From Octopus vulgaris (Eukaryota), in assembly GCA_951406725.2 (NCBI GenBank), contig OX597820.1:84754001-84818000 (forward strand): a stretch of DNA of 64,000 nucleotides, in the 5' to 3' direction. Below are positions 3,600 through 57,576 of the stretch, one piece after another; position 1 is the first letter of the stretch; each line of letters begins with the position of its first letter. Both the position numbers and the translations under genes were made by a program. Under the pieces are notes generated by a model that worked only from the letters and a program-made list of their open reading frames with translations, was not told where the DNA came from and made no database searches.

Positions 3600-4755
3600 C
3601 TCCTAGGTGTGTAATACAATTAACCTAGCTTTAATTTGGAAGTTAATATATGCCCTCATTTAGAATCGAAGACTACTGTTTCTTTGTTGAAGAGCTTTGG
3701 GTGCTATTTGTGGGATGGTGCAAAGGGTCTCTACTGATCTTTATATTCAGCGAAGGTAAAATTACCCTTGTACAGATCGGTTGTGTTTCTCTCTTCCCTC
3801 ATGTTAAACAATCTGTGCTGTGCCGCTAGAATGATTTATTTTCTTTGATGCATAGATAGATTTTCTTATTTCTTAAAGTGTACGACGGTGCGGAGGTGAG
3901 GAATTTCCGTTCTAAAACGAATCTAATACCTCCATCTTTAAGCGCCCAAAATATATTTACTTAATCCGGTCGAGTTAGTCTTATTTCTGTTTCTGAAAGT
4001 GTGTTGATGTGAGGCAAGTCTTCGTTTCATTTCATTTGGGGTAAGTCCTATTTATATCGTTTTAATAGCCCATGTTGTGAGAGTGCATTGGAAATTTACA
4101 TCTTCAATTTTATAACTATTTCTTTCTTTCTACAATCACATAGGTGGTACTGTGGAGGAGAATTACTTGCTAGTGGATCGGTGCTAGATTTATTATGGTC
4201 GATAGTTTTATTATGTTTCTGGGTGTTATCGTTATAAAATTCGGGTTCCTTATGGATTTTTATTACTTTTATTCTTACTATTACAGCTATTGTTGTTATT
4301 ATTACTTCTGTCTAAATAGAAAATACATTTTTTTTTATTATTTAGGGAGGAAATTATGCTAGCTATGTAATGCGTGAGACTACAACCTATCTTTATTACT
4401 CTACTATTAATAATATTCGAATACCTGCTATTCTTAACGAAGTATTTATTTATAATGTTGCATATCAGTTTAGCTTAGTTCTTTTTTGCATTGTATGTGG
4501 GGGTATAAGCCAATTAATGTATCTTGTTTTTTCGGTTATCTTGTCGAACGACACAAATTTATTGCTCTTAGTGTGATGCCTGCTGGTATATATTTTTATT
4601 AGTATTAATCATATTATCAAAGTTATACGAGTAAATACCACCATTAGCATTACTAGGACTTGGTTTGTGCATATAATGTTTTCAGTTATTGCTGTTGTCA
4701 TCGTGATTAGTGAATTTATTGGCATTGTTAAAGCCTCACGTATAAGTTGTATTTC

Positions 4756-16365: not shown

Positions 16366-18500
16366 TAAAAACGGTAACATAACAAAACAAAGAAAGAGAC
16401 CTCAATATTATGTAAATAGAGGAAATTTATCTATAAAATAATATGTTACAATTACTCAATAGTCAAGATAAAAATCTGAGTTTCAGATGCCGAAGTGGAA
16501 ATCCACAACAGCATCTGTTCGGTTATCTGGCCATCTGAAAAACGCTATGAAAAATACCGTTATATAAAGGGAAATTACTGTCTTATAATTCTGCTACTTA
16601 TATAAAATAAGATTAAAAGTTCATAGTAAACACATAAACATGCCCTCACTTTAACCGCTAATACAAATGGACCAGCACAGGATCGTTTTAGGAAGGATAG
16701 TATCCAATTAAGGAAATACTTTGGACTTAGTATAACTATAGATACTAACCTGACGGTTGTCAAGTTCCTAGACGTTTCCTTAAATCTATATAAGAATATT
16801 TATAAGCCTTATAGGAAGCCCAATGATAGACTTAGTTATATTAATGTAGGTTCATGCCATCCCCCTATAGCATTCAAAAGTTTAGTTAAAAATATTAGTA
16901 AGAGAATTTCTAGCCTCTCCTCCGATAAGGACATTTTAATAGCGTTGCCCCAGTTTATAATAAGGCTTTAAAAGATAGTGGTTTTAGCGAAAAAATAAAA
17001 TATACACCTGTTACTAGCCCAACAGTAAAGAAGAGGAAAAATAGAAATAGGAAGATCATCTGGTTTACATCTCCTTACTCACACGAGGTGACCTTCAATA
17101 TAGGTAAATATTTCTTAACACTGATAGATAGACATTTTCCAGTTAACCATACTTATAGGAAACTCTTCAATAAACACAATTTAAAAATTAGTTTTATTTC
17201 AACTACCAATTATAAAAATATAATCAGACATACCACACAAAAACCACAGGAAAGCAGCTGTTCATGTAGGAATAAACAAATTGTGCCCGGTAAATGGAGC
17301 TTGCATGTCAGTGGACTCTAAAGACACCGTTTCGACGAAGAAATACGTGGGCCTTACAGAGGGTAATTTCAAGGCCTGGTACAATAACCACACCTTGAGT
17401 TTTAGGCACTGGAACAAAAGAAAAGCGACACAATTATCTAATCATATTTGTTCTTTAAAAGGTAAAGGTGTCGATTATAACATCCATTGGAAGATTTTGG
17501 CCAAATGTAAGCCCTACACTAACGGCAGCTGAAAGTGCGGTCTATGCGACATGGAGAGATGGCTTATCTGGAAAAGCAGCTTAGACCCTACTACATGTCT
17601 AAACTCAAGGACATAACTTTTCGGTTCATGCCCAAATGTGACAAAATATTTGTTACGTTTTTGGTCCCTTAAAGAAAACAGATAGAACTTGCTTTCTATA
17701 TTATGTCCCAAAAAGTTTTTTATCTCATTATACCTTTTATTATTTCATATATCTTTATATTTTCATACATAATTTTTTTCTGTACTCTTCTATCCTGCAT
17801 TTTTTCCTGTGCCTATATAGACGTGTATATAGATTCATTTGTACACGTGTGTGAATATGTATGATGTGTGCGTGTGTGCGGGCATAAGAATGCATATATA
17901 TATATAGACGTTTTTACTTAGTAATTTTCTTTTTTTAGTTCATTTTCTGTTTATGCGTGTGTGTGTATGTGTATATAAACATGTGCGGGTATGTACATAT
18001 ATGGGCGTGTGTGTGTATGAGTGCATAAGGGCATGTCCGTATATGAACGTGATTTTTATTCTTTGTATACTTCCTTATGTTTTTTTCTGTTACCTTTAAC
18101 CATGGTTTTTCATGTGCTTGTGCGTATATGGACGTATGTATGAACTTTTTCGGTACGCGCCTGTGTGCGTATGAATTTGTATATATATGCGTATATATTT
18201 GGCGGAAAATGCGAGTGAGGTGTGCACGTTTTCATAGTGACGTATTAGTAGGCACGTGTATCCGCGAATGCACATGCGAGTGTATGACTAGCCATGTTTA
18301 AGTGTTTACTATGAACTTTTAATCGTATTTTATATAAGTATCAGAATTATAAGACAGTAATTTCCCTTCATATAACGGTATTTTATCATAGCGTTTTTCA
18401 GATGGCCAGATAACCGAACAGATGGTGTTGTGGATTTCCACTTCGGCATCTGAATCTCTGAGTTTTATCTTGACCATTGAGTAATTGTAACATACTATTA
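16362..18500 (+). mobile_element. 5'-truncated Penelope-like element with inverted 5' pLTR and 3' pLTR, flanked by (TA)n
   Basis: 16650-17660 encodes KFLDVSLNL...YKPYRKPNDRLSYINVGSCHPP (RT thumb) and CSCRNK..CPVNGAC...YVGLTEGNFKAWYNNHTLSF...WKILAKCKPY (GIY-YIG) with frameshifts. 16440-16642 is the reverse complement of 18293-18497. Confidence 0.9.
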
Positions 18501-18698
18501 TATATATATATATATATAGATATATATATATATATGGGTGTGTGTGATTGTGTATAGAAGAATATATTAATAAAAGAATTCCAACCTTGTCTGATTTTCA
18601 CGTTTTATTTACAATCTTATAATGATATATTATAAGATAATATATTATAATTGAATAAAATAAAATGAAATAGTAGAATGTTAAATATTCATTCTGAT

Positions 18699-18743
18699 TG
18701 AACTAGTACTTTCATGCATTGAATTCTGCAATCTTCGGGTTCA
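18699..18743 (-). ncRNA. Type-I HHR-like motif (left arm copy)
   Basis: Reverse complement of the motif at 19106-19150. Confidence 0.6.
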
Positions 18744-19105
18744 TGTAGTAGTGTTGACAGTCATGCTTCACAATTTTTGACTGTAGCAAGATGAGTGATT
18801 CTGTGCTATAAATACAGCTGGGTAGGCTCCAGAGTGCTAGGTTTTGCAAACTGTATTCTGACCAATCAGTGTGTAGTATCACTCAATTACTTAAGCTGAT
18901 TGGTTGGTTGAGCTGATTGGTTTAGGCATCACGCTTTGTTGGACAGGTCAAGAGTCCTGTAATTGAGTGATACTACACACTGATTGGTCAGAATACAGTT
19001 TGCAAAACCTAGCACTCTGGAGCCTACCCAGCTGTATTTATAGCACAGAATCACTCATCTTGCTACAGTCAAAAATTGTGAAGCATGACTGTCAACACTA
19101 CTACA

Positions 19106-19150
19106 TGAACCCGAAGATTGCAGAATTCAATGCATGAAAGTACTAGTTCA
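19106..19150 (+). ncRNA. Type-I HHR-like motif (CCGAAGA core variant)
   Basis: TGAAC-CCGAAGA-T-TGCA-GAATTCAA-TGCA-T-GAAA-GTAC-TA-GTTCA. Helix I TGAAC/GTTCA, helix II TGCA/TGCA, palindromic helix III AGTACT, UA cleavage site. Confidence 0.62.
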
Positions 19151-19279
19151 ATCAGAATGAATATTTAACATTCTACTATTTCATTTTATTTTATTCAATT
19201 ATAATATATTATCTTATAATATATCATTATAAGATTGTAAATAAAACGTGAAAATCAGACAAGGTTGGAATTCTTTTTA

Positions 19280-19328
<49 letters not shown>

Positions 19329-19332
<4 letters not shown>

Positions 19333-20223
19333 CATAAGGGACTAAAGCCATCTGAATATGGCTAGGGACAGGGCAGGGTGGTGGGGGCGTTACTGTTGCA
19401 TTTAGCCCCAGGCGAACATCGACGTCACCAGATAGGCCCGACACCGTCACGGTGTCCTTTAACCTGCAAAGGGAGGTAATTCCCCGATGAAGCGGAAACC
19501 ACACACGGACCATGGGTTCAAGGTGTATTGCCTATCGTCGGCGTGTGGTAGGCTTCCGCTTCCTCGACGAATTCTCACTCTGCAGGATATTCATATATAG
19601 ATTTTCAAGCAAAATACATTTGCTGATTTCGAAAATCTGTTCGAAAGCAATAATAATTCTCTAAAAGAGATATAGACAGTAACTGCTCGATAACATAAGG
19701 GACTAAAGCCATCTGAATATGGCTAGGGACAGGGCAGGGTGGTGGGGGTGTTACTGTTGCATTTAGCCCCAGGCGAACATCGACGTCACCAGATAGGCCC
19801 GACACCGTCACGGTGTCCTTTAGTTCGCCTGGGGCTAAATGCAACCATGGTCCGTGTGTGGTTTCCGCTTCATCGGGGAATTACCTCCCTTTGCAGGTTA
19901 AAGGACACCGTGACGGTGTCGGGCCTATCTGGTGACGTCGATGTTCGCCTGGGGCTAAATGCAACAGTAACACCCCCACCACCCTGCCCTGTCCCTAGCC
20001 ATATTCAGATGGCTTTAGTCCCTTATGTTATCGAGCAGTTACTGTCTATATCTCTTTTAGAGAATTATTATTGCTTTCGAACAGATTTTCGAAATCAGCA
20101 AATGTATTTTGCTTGAAAATCTATATATGAATATCCTGCAGAGTGAGAATTCGTCGAGGAAGCGGAAGCCTACCACACGCCGACGATAGGCAATACACCT
20201 TCTCTTTTAGAGAATTATTATTG

Positions 20224-20225
<2 letters not shown>
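19329..20225. mobile_element. Retrozyme-like element: 361-nt unit as ~1.4 tandem copies (minus sense) plus one inverted monomer
   Basis: AACATAAGGG recurs at 19331 and 19692 (period 361). 19845-20201 is a 357-nt reverse-complement monomer. Short rearranged fragments at 19823-19844 and 20201-20225. (TA)n on both sides and an HHR-like motif in the unit. Confidence 0.75.
19502..19547 (-). ncRNA. Type-I HHR-like motif (CCGACGA core, GAAC variant)
   Basis: Minus strand reads CACACG-CCGACGA-TAGG-CAATACA-CCTT-GAAC-CCATGG-TC-CGTGTG. Helix I is 6 bp and extends by GAAGCGGAAGCC/GGTTTCCGCTTC. Palindromic CCATGG in helix III. Confidence 0.62.
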
Positions 20226-20294
<69 letters not shown>

Positions 20295-20295
20295 C

Positions 20296-20396
<101 letters not shown>

Positions 20397-20559
20397 TGCG
20401 TGCTTGTGGGCGTGCGGGTATATATACAGGCTATTCGGAATATTTACAGTCAAGGTTGTTATGTTCAGATTAGCCAGACGAGGTTTGGAAATCTTTGTAA
20501 GGTATGATGCAATCTATTATGAATACAATAAGTAAAGATTTCTAATGAAATTGTGAACT

Positions 20560-21150
20560 CCTCTGATATATATATATATATAATTATTTAAATCTGAAAT
20601 TATTCCTTCAAAGTATTTATTAATTCTTATAAGAGGATTATACAATTTTTAGTAGAATTGCCCTTTCCATTTTCAAGGCAAAGAACGCATTAGGCATTTA
20701 GGTATGTTAATCAGTTGATGAATAGTCTCTTGAGGAATTTGTCGCCAAGTGTCATGCAATAATCTCAAAGGATATGGCTTTGAAGATGCCTTCTTGCTCT
20801 TTTTATGAAGCGTCCTGTCTATAATGTACCCCGACGTGTTCAATGGGTTTCATATCTGGTGACAGGCGTAGCCATGGAAGCCTTTTAATGCCATACTCTT
20901 CCAACAAATCTTGCGTCATTTTAACCATTTTAGCCATAAAAAAAAGAGTCTTCTTTAAGGATTTCACCACCGGAGAAGATTGGAAGGATTTCTTTCGGTA
21001 AAATGGACATATACTTATCTCACACTCCCATTGACCATTGCTCCAAATTGCACCATGGACCATCACTGAATAGTTGCCATATTTCATTGTTGGCCGCATT
21101 ATTTTCGCATCAAATTCCTGAGCACAGCCTTCAGAAAGGCCAATTAATCT
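20560..21150 (-). mobile_element. Tc1-family transposase fragment (DDE region)
   Basis: PTMKYGNYSVMVHGAIWSNG and WLRLSPDMKPIEHV (cf. WPxxSPDLNPIE) within ORF 20803-21399. Confidence 0.75.
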
Positions 21151-21266
21151 AACTTTCAAACACATTATGATAAATCTATAAATCTGATAAGGTAGGAAAG
21201 CGCTAGGTGTGTAAATAAAATATAGATAAAAGGTAAAGAAAAAATACACATAAGCATCTAGCTTAT

Positions 21267-21331
<65 letters not shown>

Positions 21332-21335
<4 letters not shown>

Positions 21336-22050
21336 GGTTTGACAAAATAATGGAAACGCCTTTTTCAAACAAATTTATTTTAATATAGGGTAGGGCCAAC
21401 TTTGGCAGTAATTACAGCTTGAATTCTACGAGCTATGGACTCGTACTAAGTTTGAATCGTTTCCAGAGGACTTTTTGGTCTATTGTGCAGCTAAAGCAGT
21501 CTCTAATTCTTGTAGTGATGATGCTGGAGGATATCGACTCCTTACTTGTTTTTTTCTAAAATGCACCATAAATTTTCAACAATATTGATATCTGGGGACT
21601 GTGGCGGCCAGATAAGATGTTCAACCTGACTAGAATATTACTCGTGCCATTCAGTAACAAATTTAGCTGCGGGAATTGGTGTATTATGATCCTGAAAGAT
21701 CGTGTTTCTCATCGGAAACAGTTCTGCAACCGTAGGTTGCATTTGATGAGATAAAATGCTTAATTAGTCTCGACTATTAATTCTGCCAAGAATGGAAACT
21801 ATTTGCCGGCGGATATCCAAGATATAGACCCCACCGATCATCATAGATCCTCCTCCCTGGTTAACAGTTACAGGAAGGAGTCTGGATCAAATGATTCTTT
21901 TGGCTGTCTCCACACGCATACTCTGCCGATTGTCAGAAATCAGGCAAAGGCTGACTCGTTCGAGTAAATAACATTTTCGCCTGATCTAAGGACCGATTCT
22001 GTAGCCTTTTACCCCATTCATTAGCAGTTTTGCAATAGAGACTTTAGACA
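21332..22050 (-). mobile_element. Tc1-family fragment with one TIR abutting (TA)n
   Basis: Minus-strand HLIWPPQSPDINIVENLW at ~21565-21620. Terminus TACACGGTTTGACAAAATAATGGAAAC. Resembles the 10124-11020 copy. Confidence 0.8.
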
Positions 22051-22974
22051 TGATACCAGTTTACAAACTAAATAGAGGGATCGATCTGTCCAGCAAAAAT
22101 GCTGCATGGTAGTGCCCTAGCATACTGCAATCCAATGCCTGAAATAAATAAAACATAAAATTCAAAATGTAAAAAGAACAATGCATGGTGTAGGGAATGC
22201 AATGCATAACCTGAACGCAGATAATATTTTTCGCATAATATAGTATTGCCTATATTGCGTTGCTTACCCATTTTAAGTGAGCTGAATTATTTACTTTTTC
22301 AAGTATCATTATAATAGCTATTTATACTCTGGTGAAATTATGAAATCAACTCATAGTAAATGAAACACTCGAATCCATCACCTTACACACGCGCGCGCGC
22401 TAGCAAACTCACACACAGTCGCATGTTTATGTATGTATTAATGTATGTTTGAAGATAATCAAGCCAAAGTTTTAACATTTCAAGCCACTCACCCAATGAG
22501 TATTTATGACAAATTTGGTGAAATTCCGTTCCGATGTTTTCCACTAAGTTTGCCAAATTAAAGACAATGTGACACATACGAGTGATTACAATGACCCTGC
22601 TTTCGCTTATGCGCACAGCGTAAATATATACGGCTATAATTTGTCTGCTGCTATATAAGTGTGAAATTCTATATGTAAAATGTGTGCTATCGGTTGGACA
22701 TTTCATCCCTGTATTTTTACTAATTGTCAGCAAATTACTCTTATACTAAAGTATTCATTGTAGTTGTAACTCTCAGTTTGATGTGAATAAATCAAACACC
22801 CTATATTTCTTGGTTTTCAACAAGTATCTTGCGTTCTCGGACCTATTAGAGTTGCATGTTATCACATTCTTTGACATAGATCGATTTTATTATTGACTCA
22901 TGACACAGATATATCATTGCAACGTAATTGGATTTGCACACGTGGCTAAAGTAAACTTCCATTAAATTCCTTAA

Positions 22975-24236
22975 TGTATCAGTCTGAGTAAAAAGTAAGC
23001 AAAGTTTTAGAAATTGAAATACATCACAATGTATTTTAACAATGCGGAAATTTTATTCATCAAACTAAGTACCATTACAATCAACGCGCTTTTGCCAACG
23101 AGATACAAGTTTGTTTATTCCGGAGATATAAAACCTTGATTTCTGGAGTTAATGAACTCTTTGAAAGCACTTTCAGCATCGGTTTGAACTTTTAAACACC
23201 TTCTGTTGCAAAGGAACCATCGAAGTGCTTGAAAAAGTGGTAGTCAGTAGAAAGGGGAGTAAGCGTGTTGGGGAAGAACTTCGTAGTCAAGTTCGCTCAA
23301 CTTCTGGAGCGTCATTAGTGAATCGTATGGCCGAACATTGTCATGACGTTTGGCCCGCTTCTGTTGACCAGTCTGCGTCGGAGAAGTAGCAGTTTTTCGT
23401 ATATTGTGGCGATTGTATGGCAATCTGTTTCTGCAGTAATGGTTTTTCCGGGTTTTAAGAAGTTATAGTGGATACGTCACCAAACAATCACTATAACCTT
23501 CTTTTTGAAGAACTCGAGTTTAGGCAAGGTTTTCGAGGCTTTATTTTGGTTCAACCGCTACGAAGAACGGTTTTTTCTTATTGTACCGGGTAAACTTTTC
23601 ATCGCAACTACCAAACGGTCGAGAAATGGATCGTTGTGGATACGGAGAAGAAGCGACGCGCAAATTTTAAACCTACGCATTTTCTAATTTTCATTGAAAT
23701 CGTGTGGTACCCATTTGTGCAGCTTTTTTGATTTTCCGATCGCATGCGAATGACTGCAAGCACTTTTCTGGCTGACTTGCAGCTCTTTTGCCAGTTTTGG
23801 AGTGGTTTTGCGTGGATTTTTCTCAATGAAGGTTTGTAATTGACCGTCATCAATACCAGATGGGCACCCACTACGCTCAGGTCCCCACTGCGAAATCGTT
23901 TTAACTATTTTCGAGCTGACCATTCACTGGTAATTTCCTCACCAAACATTTCCTTTACATCGCGAGCGGTTTCACTTCCTTTACACCCTTTTTTTTTTTT
24001 TGAAGTTGAATAACAAAATTACTCGAATATTGCGCTTTGGCTTTTCTATTTCAGATGATTGTAACAACTGTGAAAAACATATCAATGTTAATTTATTGAT
24101 GCATTTGTGCAAATCTATGTCTATATTATCAGACAATTGCAAAAGGTTGTTTAAAAAAATTCAACGTTTGCAAAACTCTGGTATACATTCTTCATGGTTC
24201 AAAACTTTGCTTACTTTTTACTCAACCTGATAAATA
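22975..24236 (-). mobile_element. Full-length degenerate mariner element (~1.26 kb)
   Basis: TIRs TATCAGTCTGAGTAAAAAGTAAGCAAAGTTTT and AAAACTTTGCTTACTTTTTACTCAACCTGATA. Transposase remnants RSGCP and KKLHKWVPHDF (WVPHEL motif). Confidence 0.88.
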
Positions 24237-24984
24237 TAAAAAATGTGGGTAACGCCAACAGTTTTGGGCTATTGCAAGCAATGCCATCATACCTAAACAT
24301 TAGCAAGTATATCTATGATTTTCTACTGATAATTGAACTAAAACAAAATGTATCCATATATATTTCATCTAAATTTCTAGTTAGCAAATGAACTCGCATT
24401 TACTGTTATGTAAAACAGTTCTCAACCTGCTGCAAATCCAGGTACGTACAGTTCTTAAACAAGGAAGTACTCATTGTGTTAATAATTATTTTTATTTTGC
24501 GAGTCGAAAATAAAGAATGATAAGATTCAACTCATTTGTATTTCACTATAGACTACATATATTTATCTCTAAAGCATTTTAACGTGAATTTGACGAGTAA
24601 TTACTTGCATTTTCGTTTCAAAACAATTGTGATTATGAGTAGCACAGGATGTAGTTAGGGAAAGAAAATCCCAAAATATTCACTGAAGTGATTAGGAATC
24701 GAGAATTCTAAATTACAGATAATGTTCTTTAAGAAGACATTCAGGATAATTCTGGTGAATATATTTTCAACATTGTATAATTTGTAATCCAATGACGATT
24801 TTAATTTAATATAGAAAGATTAGTATATATTTATAGATAGTAGGTTTGTTATCTATTTCCTAAATATCTGCTCCAAGCGTTCTAAAAAGATATCTGATAA
24901 AAGCGTACAGACACACACAGCGAGGCACACTTTAGTATGAATATATGGGAGTGTATCAGCGCGCGTCTATGTATGTGTGTTTCC

Positions 24985-25046
<62 letters not shown>

Positions 25047-26684
25047 AAACATATACTCTGCAGAGCGTAAATAGGAATAAATTAGATTAAATTCTCCAAA
25101 TCCTCTTTGTGTATTAAATAAGAATGTAAACAACTTTATATATTCTTTATTGAAAGCAAAAAATCAAGATAATCACTAAATGAAAATCTTCCCGGCTTTC
25201 TGAACAACCCTTAGAAAAATCACACAACTCATCATAGCATACACAAAAGCACATATCAGCTGCTATACAAAACAAGGAAAACTATATTGTTACGGTCTTA
25301 GCCAAATTCATATGTTTTTGCGTTCCTACAGTTCATTATTAATTGCACAAGTTTTATGTACAAAAGAATGGAAATGAAGAGTGAGGATTTTAGATACTAC
25401 AAGAGATCTCTAAAAGTTTATTTGACTTACCTTATTTTGTTAGGCTATTATAGTGTTTTGAGAGGAATAAGTGTAGGTGCATGCATTTAATAACTTGATA
25501 TGGCTTTATAAACTTTTATATGGTTGGACTTAATCCTGTTGTATGTTTCAGTTTTATATGAGACTCCTAGATGTTGAAGTAGATCAAAGTGTATTTTCTC
25601 AACCCTAGATGTTCTATGAGTTTGTAATCTTCTGATATTGTGTACTGTTGTTGGCTATAAAATCAGATGAAATCAAATATATGAGTTACAAATATCTTAT
25701 GCATAAGGCCAATTCGAAGTTTTCTTTGTATAAACCAAGTTTCAGATTACATACTATACGTGGTGCAAGAATTATTAGCTAGTTTAATTAAAGGAAAATA
25801 TTGATTGTTACTTAAAAGTCAAGGTAAATATTATCCTCACACTGAAACAGTTATTAAACTATATGCAGTTTGCATGGAAGAATTTGGAAGTCCTCGTATG
25901 TAGGTGCGCACATCTTGCGTATTATTTTTGTTTACTGTTTAGAAACTGGTGTGATGCTGTGAAAATATGGAATATTTTCTCTGTGCCCAAATTTCATCAT
26001 AGTTTTCCTCAGATTACATATGATTCAGCCATGCTTAATTTTTCGCATTCCATAATAAAGTTAGACATTCTCTGTATTTGGGAACAACTCAGGCTCGTGT
26101 TATGCATCTTCTCTGTATCCTTAAATGAAATCCAATCATTTGTCAGTCTCGCCATTTATGTTGTCGAGGAGGGAGCAATGTTGGACTTCGAATATCCTAC
26201 TAACGTAACCCTACCCTATAGCTGTATGCCAAATTTTCGATATTACATTCAGTATATAAAGGACAAATTCTCTTTCTTACACAACGGAAATGATATATTA
26301 CTTTTTCTAACCCCACCTATATTAGTGGGACCAGAATTAGATATCCTCACTCTCCGTATCTACGGATGTATTGCTGCTTATATTCCAGCTATCATTTCGG
26401 CTTTCCTCGCTATAACCTCTGCCATCTACTGTACCCGGTTCACCTACTTTAGGGATAGTAACTGTTGGCTCTCCACCACTGCCTATATCTACTTGGATGT
26501 TCGTTTCTATATCATTGGGTGTGAGGTTGGTATATGGGGTCCTTTATGGTAGACTATCTTTTAAAATTTAAGTGCGTTGTCGCTATCATTAAGAGTATCG
26601 TTATAATTGTCCGAAGCTTTATAGTCGTCTCTTGTGTTCAGGAATGCAGATATTCTACCAGTATCATGCGCCGCTATTATTTAT

Positions 26685-26732
<48 letters not shown>

Positions 26733-26741
26733 ATTGAATGT

Positions 26742-26910
26742 ATATATATATTATTCAAAGAAATTGCAACTCTGTTTTTTATGTTTTATTTGTATTCTTT
26801 ATAATATTAATGTAGAATTATTATATATTCTATATTCTACATTAATATCATAAAGAATATAGATAAAACATAAAAAACAGAATTGGAATTCCTTTGAATA
26901 ATATATATAT
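26742..26910. repeat. Imperfect ~170-bp AT-rich foldback
   Basis: TATTCAAAGAAATTGCAACTCTGTTTTT...ATTAATGTAGAA pairs with TTCTACATTAAT...AAAAACAGAATTGGAATTCCTTTGAATA. Confidence 0.8.
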
Positions 26911-26936
26911 CCCTGTATACTCAATCATACAAACCC

Positions 26937-27999
<1,063 letters not shown>

Positions 28000-28507
28000 A
28001 TACACACGAAAAGATATACATATGTTCGTCTAGTAGGTGAGGCATTAACTGTACATTGACCAACGGCCTAATTGAAGAGTATCGTCCAAAGTGAATTCGG
28101 CAAGCATAGGTATAAACAACAAAAAATGGATATTTTTGGAAACATGCAAATAAAATTCTTTGAAGGAAAAGTATATCAGAAAATGTGTGAAACTCTCTTG
28201 TTATCAATATGTATCAGAATATTTTTTTAATAGTATATGCATGTGTTTCTGATAACATTATAGAAAGCCAATGACGTCGAAAGTTCAAGAGACCGTGTGA
28301 CATAGCTTCTCTGACACAACGGGTGCGGGCCTATAATACACAAAAAAACCTTTTGTATAGTGTAATTTAGTCGAAAAATTATTAAACACAGAGTGTGATT
28401 TTACAGAAATGGTTAATTTGATTTATGAGCGATGTACAGGGAACAATGAGATATTAAATAAACATATAAAACCAGTGAAAACCACGACCCATGAACATTG
28501 TTTTGAG

Positions 28508-28565
<58 letters not shown>

Positions 28566-28640
28566 CAAAAATATTCGTCGAATTCATATCATCATCACAT
28601 TTTATCTGGATAGGCGATATTATAAAATTTCTTAAGGAGA

Positions 28641-28820
28641 GGAGCTGGCTGAATAGTTGGCCCGACGGCAAAATGCTCCGGTAGAAAGTGTTTTCCAGGG
28701 CGACACTGCTTTCCATCCTTTCAGGCCCGTTAAAAGAAGTACGAGTTGAATGCTGTGGTCTATGTAAACGAGTTAACCCCACTCCAAACGTGCTGGCATT
28801 ATGCCAAAATTTGAAACCGA
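28641..28820 (+). mobile_element. SINE family C, diverged copy
   Basis: GGAGCTGGCTGAATAGTTGG...AAAATGCT...TGCCAAAATTTGAAACC. Confidence 0.5.
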
Positions 28821-28894
28821 CGCAATAGGAAGTTTCAATTCAATATTTTTACAGAAACATACGTATGTTTTGTTTTGTTCCTTCTCAAACCATG

Positions 28895-29062
28895 TCTGGC
28901 TCATAAGGGGCGGTTTCGCGGTTTCCTTGGCGTATAGGTTCCCCACCTGGACGGGTCACCGGTGGGCTGCAATATGCAGGAGGAAAGAGTGAGAGAAATT
29001 TGTGGCGAAAGAGTCAGCAGAAGTTCGCCATTACCTTCTGCCGGAGCCGCGTGGAGCTTAGT
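28895..29062 (-). mobile_element. SINE family B-related fragment
   Basis: GAGTGAGAGAAATTTGTGGCGAAAGAGTCAGCAGAAGTTCGCC...TGCCGGAGCCGCGTGGAGC matches 38029-38100, but the 3' portion differs. Confidence 0.65.
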
Positions 29063-57148: not shown

Positions 57149-57576
57149 GGATCTATTCGGTTTGAACGGCAGTTTTTAACATAATTTCTAGGTAACTTCG
57201 TATACTGGTAGAATGTGTTTATAAAACATCTTTTTCTCTTGACTTTATTAAGAATATTCTATAGTTTGTAAGATATTTATTGTTTTGTTCTTCAATTTCT
57301 GCACTTTCAACTAATCACTGACGTCCATTGAGGTAAACAACATTCTGTGCCGTATGGATATGTCCCTCGTTTAAGAAACAGATTGGGTTTATTTACATTT
57401 TTGAAGAAAAAAATATACCCTACCCCCACCCCTATCCCTAACCCTAACCTTAACCCTAACTAACCCTAACCCTAAAATAGATTGAAATGCAATACATCGA
57501 TACTAGGGTCAAAATTATGGGTGACAATTTCATATGACACCGCTAGAAAAAACTGCCGTTCAAACCAAAAAGATCC
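57149..57576. mobile_element. 428-bp MITE with GG-terminal TIRs and 8-bp TSD (Merlin-like), containing CCCTAA repeats
   Basis: TIRs GGATCTATTCGGTTTGAACGGCAGTTTTT and AAAAACTGCCGTTCAAACCAAAAAGATCC. TSD CCCACCTC at 57141-57148 and 57577-57584. (CCCTAA)-like array at ~57418-57476. Confidence 0.85.

Follow-up and report, generated by a model that had tools for sequence, protein, structure and literature searches.

The window, by which we mean the whole 64-kb stretch of Octopus vulgaris DNA that was analysed, contains a non-coding tandem element with a hammerhead-like motif, inserted in an AT-dinucleotide tract next to the 3' end of a Penelope-like element (Table 1). Positions within the repeat unit are numbered on the hammerhead (minus) strand, with u = 19690 - window position. 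As an earlier note on this DNA had proposed, arm 1 follows a 361-nt period, with 99.8% identity over its 494 nt. The same note had read the sequence to its right as a free inverted monomer, and thus as evidence of circular permutation. An inverted copy is indeed present, but as the second arm of a head-to-head insertion into (TA)n. This arm 2 is 5'-truncated, contains jumps and comprises three pieces (u273-295, u175 round to u170, u20-44). The unit is 361 nt long in the window copy and most commonly 360 nt in the family (range 359-361 nt), and its GC content is 47%. No credible protein is encoded, as had been claimed: the longest stop-to-stop frame within one arm is 83 aa and partly AT repeat, and frames of 91-129 aa exist only across the inversion junction. 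No tRNA was found in the 64-kb window. Far from a contig end, at 57417-57475, the window also holds about ten degenerate copies of a telomere-like ACCCTA unit.

Table 1. Features of the retrozyme insertion and the adjoining Penelope-type insertion, in window positions
Feature	Position	Strand	Remarks
Neptune-type Penelope-like element 3' end, head-to-head, 5'-truncated	18514..19288	.	left arm 4321 to 3875 (long end), right arm 3946 to about 4275 (short end); candidate mobilising family
Second hammerhead-like motif, Penelope 3' UTR	19106..19150	+	mirrored copy 18699-18743, minus strand
(AT)n target tract	19283..19331	.	common to the retrozyme and the adjoining Penelope-type insertion
Retrozyme arm 1	19329..19822	-	1.37 units; 3' end is the short fixed site u361 (window 19329); 5'-truncated at u229
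Type I hammerhead-like motif	19502..19547	-	read from sequence; family state from copy comparison; activity predicted only
Head-to-head junction piece, 23 nt (u273-295)	19823..19845	+	likely template jump
Retrozyme arm 2, main piece	19845..20201	+	u175 round to u170, 357 nt; position 15.1 outside its span
Arm 2 outer end, u20-44	20201..20225	+	long fixed 3' end, the 44-nt 'tail' site
(TA)n tract, right flank of retrozyme	20225..20378	.	

The type I hammerhead topology reported earlier can be seen directly in the sequence. Stem I is formed by 19542-19547 pairing with 19502-19507, the core C3 C4 G5 A6 C7 G8 A9 occupies 19541-19535, helix II consists of a U·U plus three base pairs, and G12 A13 A14 and a palindromic helix III complete the motif; the predicted cut lies 3' of C17 (19508), that is, at u182. 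Position 15.1, at 19516, is C in the window copy versus A in the family. Of the unusual core described in the earlier note, U4C and the U·U pair proved to be family-wide, while GAAC did not, as the other 60 of 61 hammerheads in the 30 best loci read GAAA. Being unique among these 61 copies, GAAC is therefore a private mutation, which probably impairs the window copy. The 46-nt hammerhead has 381 exact copies in the 2.8-Gb genome, and the C4 core pattern gives 1,258 exact matches genome-wide versus one in the control, in agreement with the proposal of a recently active, multi-copy non-LTR retrozyme. All 1,258 depart from the canonical core (C3 U4 G5 A6 N7 G8 A9, G12 A13 A14 A15.1) by U4C. Among 91 U4 copies, 90 carry U3·G8 and one has the canonical C3-U4; some U4 copies may represent CpG decay of C4. 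No Rfam hammerhead model was detected at E up to 10 in the window region, in GAAA copies or in the Penelope 3' UTR, so that a standard search overlooks the motif, as had been anticipated, even where GAAA is intact.

Neither core change is wholly unprecedented, each having a single published precedent. A U·U at the base of helix II is described for the axolotl retrozyme HHR_Amex2 (PMC7229834), and Perreault et al. 2011 (PMC3088659) report U3-A8 covariation, a U10.1·U11.1 pair and, in a viroid, a U4C variant; U4C lowers activity in vitro. In the octopus, the U3-U4/G8 subfamily looks older and is about 95% identical to the C4 retrozyme, and U3-U4 with A8 is found in one contig of sequencing run X1 and in part of the depth in run X19. 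Three forms of the 3-8 pair (C-G, U·G and U-A) are thus on record, with stems I-III, GAAA and the helix III palindrome unchanged across the aligned subfamilies. As far as sequence comparison at this small divergence can indicate, the pattern supports a real hammerhead fold under constraint.

The high base pairing claimed for the unit is likewise evident, with 65% of positions paired and a z-score of -5.7 relative to 150 dinucleotide shuffles. For three further natural monomers the z-scores are -6.9, -5.1 and -4.3, and for a control piece of equal length from the 3' end of the neighbouring element it is -1.4. The long rod and the GACACCG and AGCCAT hairpins of the earlier note recur in the circular fold; its third hairpin is drawn otherwise in the minimum-energy structure. 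Folding predictions for the monomer place the active fold at -4.4 versus a minimum of -19.2 kcal/mol, with probabilities of 0.05 for helix II and 0.28 for stem I, and in a natural dimer the inter-unit helix III has a predicted probability of 0.6-0.7. This predicted pattern fits the dimeric-hammerhead scheme, in which cleavage would occur in multimers and circles would be protected. Penelope hammerheads have been characterised as low-activity dimers (Cervera and de la Pena 2014, PMC4209133), and for the present family we lean slightly towards measurable self-cleavage in dimers.

The arrangement seen in the window recurs across the genome. Seventy-nine non-redundant loci were mapped, six overlapping loci having been removed before counting, and the degraded locus L104 was dropped, which leaves 78. 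Because a locus had to contain a full unit or an exact hammerhead to be included, short arms are under-represented and read-through counts inflated. Fifty-eight of the 78 loci are two-armed, and in all 58 the arms lie head-to-head, each with its 3' end pointing outward. These outer ends cluster at two fixed sites, u361 (short) and u44 (long; u40 in some copies), which are offset by 44 nt. One short end is combined with one long end in 53 of the 58 two-armed loci, two short ends are found in one, and in four loci one end lies at neither site (short/long pairing 53/54, p 3e-15). The remaining 20 loci are single arms, each ending at the u361 or the u44 site. Inner (5') ends are scattered, and (TA)n flanks the fixed ends of nearly all loci displayed. 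One clear non-microsatellite target, at L113, has a target-site duplication of 12-13 bp; at the other loci such duplications are hidden in (TA)n. Arms reach up to 14 units, subfamilies differ by single-base indels, and the mapped loci have no terminal direct repeats besides the unit itself. By reading of alignments, the older subfamily has the same end pattern in 13 of its 14 two-armed loci. Divergence between arms is 0.96% (43 of 65 loci), 1.33% (9 of 15) and, for the U3-U4 subfamily, 1.61% (10 of 14), and it is 0.22% (3 of 15) for the Penelope element; these values are noisy and include junction errors, and the age ranking of retrozyme subfamilies derived from them is weak. In windows picked post hoc, 27 of 132 5' truncation points fall in the tail zone u1-44 (p 0.005) and 11 of 132 at the rod foot u225-235 (p 0.002).

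Tandem arrays and palindromes can also arise at the DNA level, which speaks for a satellite or foldback that recombination or rolling-circle replication of DNA would have dispersed, its hammerhead-like motif being fortuitous. The end statistics largely refute such an origin, since fixed, asymmetric outer ends combined with random inner ends at dispersed loci match those of an RT-encoding element; the covariation of the 3-8 pair and fold z-scores of -4 to -7 also count against it, and we consider it very improbable.

The ends do correspond to a published insertion signature. Inverted 5'-truncated copies, a one-sided tail of 30-40 bp and (TA)n targets are reported for Penelope-like elements (PMC8557442 and its preprint). 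Work on the lizard element PAc showed that its tail lies between two internal sites at which the RT starts, and that both strands are nicked at AT-rich DNA; this two-start-site signature is called unique to Penelope-like elements (PMC11167929). Because the retrozyme ends match this arrangement, we infer that they represent the RT start sites of a Penelope protein, and we regard Penelope-type mobilisation of the retrozyme as very likely. The earlier note had suggested a link to Penelope machinery, and the insertion signature at 53 of 58 two-armed loci bears this out much more strongly than the letters of the window alone could show. No shared fold was found around the two start sites. Partial tandems, an inverted 5'-truncated copy, a tail at one end, AT-rich or microsatellite targets and a hammerhead near the 3' end are all features that the retrozyme shares with Penelope-like elements of the Neptune type (PMC8557442), Poseidon PAc (PMC11167929) and Adineta Penelope (PMC3846280). 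Unlike Penelope-like elements, however, it is without an ORF, and the 360-nt unit constitutes the entire element.

The palindrome to the left of the retrozyme is the 3' end of an element of 4,271 bp, an intact copy of which lies at L061:4784-9058 (G000:C1 about 80,215,683-80,219,957). This element occurs in tandem and inverted arrays, and its copies are 99-100% identical. It has a 775-aa open frame with an RT plus a GIY-YIG at the C-terminus, preceded by a 430-aa frame in another phase that has no Pfam match; Pfam identifies RVT_1 (below its cut-off) and GIY-YIG in the longer frame. The translation shows a DKG motif in the RT, a CX2-5CxxC linker and, at the C-terminus, a GIY-YIG with internal cysteines, motifs by which the element would belong to the Neptune clade, with Nematis as the alternative. 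Most of the 60 best genome hits have kept the RT-endonuclease frame open, and when hits to a distant homologue are ranked, the best 60 all represent this one family. Its closest named protein relatives come from bivalve molluscs, and scans of metagenome and prokaryote collections found no relative. Naiad was ruled out as partner by the C-terminal endonuclease and the DKG motif, and an apparent second Neptune family at L078/L208 turned out to be a frameshifted copy of the same Neptune-type family.

Several properties of the Neptune-type element parallel those of the retrozyme. Its ends at 4275 and 4321 (21 and 33 of 62 alignment ends, loci not being de-duplicated) delimit a 46-nt tail, and its targets are the same. 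Its 3' UTR hammerhead-like motif has a 5-bp stem I, a C4 core, a U·U plus 4-bp helix II, GAAA and a palindromic helix III, and the pattern has 1,148 matches genome-wide versus none in the control. An older, degraded sister (L209-L220; 61 exact matches) has the canonical U4 and the same stems with a different loop II, so that C4 looks derived in the currently amplifying Neptune-type lineage. Among 70 loci compared there were no chimeric retrozyme/Penelope arms, two loci had adjacent insertions in one (TA)n tract, and one had a 73% fragment nearby. At L096:1113-3241, as in the window, one (TA)n tract holds a retrozyme insertion and, directly beside it, a Neptune-type insertion.

No similarity could be detected between the retrozyme and the Neptune-type element (best E 0.11) or, at E 0.01, the older sister, and the identity of the partner is hence circumstantial. 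Other intact families may fill this role, because intact frames were scored among the best 60-150 of 17,740-29,048 candidates. We nevertheless consider the Neptune-type family the probable partner. The unit could instead have been the terminal repeat of a different, unseen autonomous Penelope family, its true partner, from which it became detached, as in the model of a 2026 preprint (bioRxiv 10.64898/2026.07.22.740005). In that study 24 of 57 frog retrozyme families have matches among known elements, and of these 22 elements 21 are Penelope-like. Further Penelope-type ends do exist in the octopus genome, among them a minimal-hammerhead family with 10,683 copies and a fragment whose identity to the partner protein is about 65%. 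Against a detached terminal repeat, none of the 78 loci continues, by eye, into recognisable common upstream sequence, and all top-scoring intact frames among the best 60-150 of 17,740-29,048 candidates belong to one family, which makes this origin unlikely. The present case resembles those in the preprint in that Penelope would mobilise the retrozyme and in that the retrozyme co-occurs with a Neptune-type element; it differs in its evidence, as the preprint cases rest on co-occurrence and terminal-repeat homology and here it is the insertion signature, with no homology to the candidate partner, that points to Penelope. Non-autonomous elements of Chlamys are comparable, yet they generally share 3'-end sequence with their partners (PMC8557442).

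The insertions also constrain the template. Arms copied from a linear monomer cut at u182 could not exceed 179 or 223 nt, yet 125 of 132 arms pass u182, arms reach 14 units and 5' ends do not pile up at the cut site (5 of 132, p 0.65), which argues for either a circle or an uncleaved multimer. A haplotype is common to both arms in 20 of 23 loci versus 14% for random pairs, and the other three differ at one site; mean differences are 0.4 between arms, 0.8 within arms and 4.5 between loci. Locus-specific alleles are fixed through whole near-identical arrays, for example at L094 and L134. Homogeneous donor arrays would produce the same haplotype pattern as a circle. In runs X1, X3 and X6, which derive from three studies and are presumed to be RNA, one contig of 390-391 nt each has a 30-nt terminal overlap and thus closes into a cycle of 360-361 nt. 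The same runs yield contigs of the Penelope 3' UTR, and run X19 gives 609 contigs over the whole stretch. Since a graph cycle also arises from a tandem transcript, closed contigs fit circular and tandem RNA alike. An odd inner unit occurs in L105 and L122, which together with L130 makes 3 of the 16 arrays displayed mosaic, and such mosaics are not obtainable from one circle without template switching. The 11-unit array at L130:1493-5383 is a mosaic of two or three haplotypes that are found pure at other loci, and would reflect template switching or a mixed donor array. On these data the balance tips slightly towards a circular RNA intermediate serving as template.

A competing interpretation accepts mobilisation by Penelope but takes the hammerhead to be dead or irrelevant, the template being an uncleaved multimer with no circle and the core change being neutral or a favoured loss of cleavage. 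That both U4C and U3·G8 lie off the canonical core, that no 5' ends are piled at the cut site and that the L130 array is mosaic are all as this interpretation would expect, and cleavage is unneeded in vitro for another element (PMC11167929). It accounts less well for the retention of the 3-8 pair in three forms with stems, GAAA and the helix III palindrome unchanged, for the unbranched closed cycles in three presumed-RNA runs and for near-identical units, up to 14 per array, throughout which locus-specific alleles are fixed (for example L094 and L134). We judge it doubtful, though it is the most serious of the alternatives. The viroid size, strong fold and closed cycles of the unit, together with 23 haplotype strings among 72 loci, might also suggest an autonomous viroid-like RNA that replicates from RNA to RNA and was endogenised secondarily. 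In the hammerhead scan, however, the ribozyme motif occurs in one polarity only, contigs from the runs differ from the genomic copy by 1-6 letters, and phage records and metagenome contigs contain no match to the unit. Of all the explanations weighed here, a viroid-like RNA is the least credible.

We therefore return to a non-coding 360-nt hammerhead retrozyme that is written into (TA)n by a Penelope-like RT and GIY-YIG endonuclease, probably those of the adjoining Neptune-type family, a reading to which we assign a probability of roughly 60%. Tandem arrays would be transcribed. Two adjacent hammerheads would then join by way of the 8-nt palindromic helix III and cleave slowly, leaving the monomer to be closed by a host ligase. 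Once the monomer is circular, the motif is predicted to be largely misfolded, which would make the circle more stable. The Penelope protein would then nick both (TA)n strands, and cDNA would begin at two internal sites, one per nick. Each cDNA would pass the unit up to 14 times, and the joining of the two truncated 5' ends would create the palindrome. For this last step a circle is the preferred template, with an uncleaved multimeric transcript as the main alternative.

For PAc, hammerhead cleavage is dispensable for insertion, unprocessed RNA being the main substrate (PMC11167929), of nine frog retrozymes put to the test eight showed no cleavage (Li, Clavereau and Pollet 2026, bioRxiv 10.64898/2026.07.22.740005), and Naiad elements proliferate without canonical hammerheads (PMC8557442). 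By analogy with PAc and Naiad, weakened cleavage may be tolerated or favoured. In the octopus genome C4 is the majority state in three high-copy families: the retrozyme, the young Neptune-type element and a minimal-hammerhead repeat. The third repeat ends in (TA)n and has 10,683 exact matches (control 0), and among the first 100 listed matches C4 is found in 79 and U4 in 21. Copies of it were encountered in the flanks of L107, L113, L130, L032, L066 and L070. For the retrozyme and the Neptune-type element, the relatives that look older have U4, the age ranking of retrozyme subfamilies being weak. The situation is unlike that in Perreault et al. 2011 (PMC3088659), where U4C is a rare viroid variant. 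One could go further and propose that the Neptune-type protein copies a 360-nt circle in trans without homology, from two fixed starts and with both arms drawn from one template by rolling-circle copying, and that ribozyme-weakening U4C cores swept independently to majority in the retrozyme, its partner and the third Penelope-type family as slower cutting favours transposition. We offer this combined scheme tentatively, as rather less likely than its opposite; if true, CUGANGA-based searches would miss a large class of animal hammerheads.

Compared with known systems, the element appears to be a variant of the metazoan non-LTR retrozymes of Cervera and de la Pena 2020 (PMC7229834): by sequence and structure it agrees with them in every testable respect except the canonical core, and its cleavage and circularity are predictions. 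Shared features are a non-coding tandem unit of 150-450 nt in many dispersed copies, GC under 50%, one type I hammerhead per unit, a palindromic helix III and a self-paired circular fold, and the unit size is like that of mussel retrozymes (PMC7229834). As in those retrozymes there is no LTR-type structure, and the target duplication exceeds 4 bp (12-13 bp at one locus). The octopus family differs from them in its family-wide U4C core (U3·G8 in the older subfamily) and in a hammerhead that is predicted to be blocked in the monomer, unlike most animal retrozymes, for which PMC7229834 predicts a free one. Head-to-head insertions with a one-sided 44-nt tail are absent from the retrozyme description in the sections of PMC7229834 cited here. 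A literature search that covered main article texts returned no description of this retrozyme family or of the tail signature in retrozymes; the work of Lunse et al. on Penelope hammerhead variants may cover U4C.

With U4C present in three high-copy families, standard descriptors would seem to undercount animal hammerheads, although not every search excludes C4, since a CYGANGA descriptor is used in one virome paper. The U4C core also bears on the open question of what role hammerheads play in Penelope elements. The action of a Penelope RT on circular RNA is the stated hypothesis for the genomic entry of retrozymes and has until now been backed by co-occurrence and homology. The Penelope-specific two-start-site signature in retrozyme insertions constitutes unusually direct genomic evidence of such mobilisation. 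Moreover, an intact, near-identical, multi-copy candidate partner makes three questions testable in vitro, namely recognition in trans without homology, the use of a circle versus a multimer as template, and the formation of the inverted arm.
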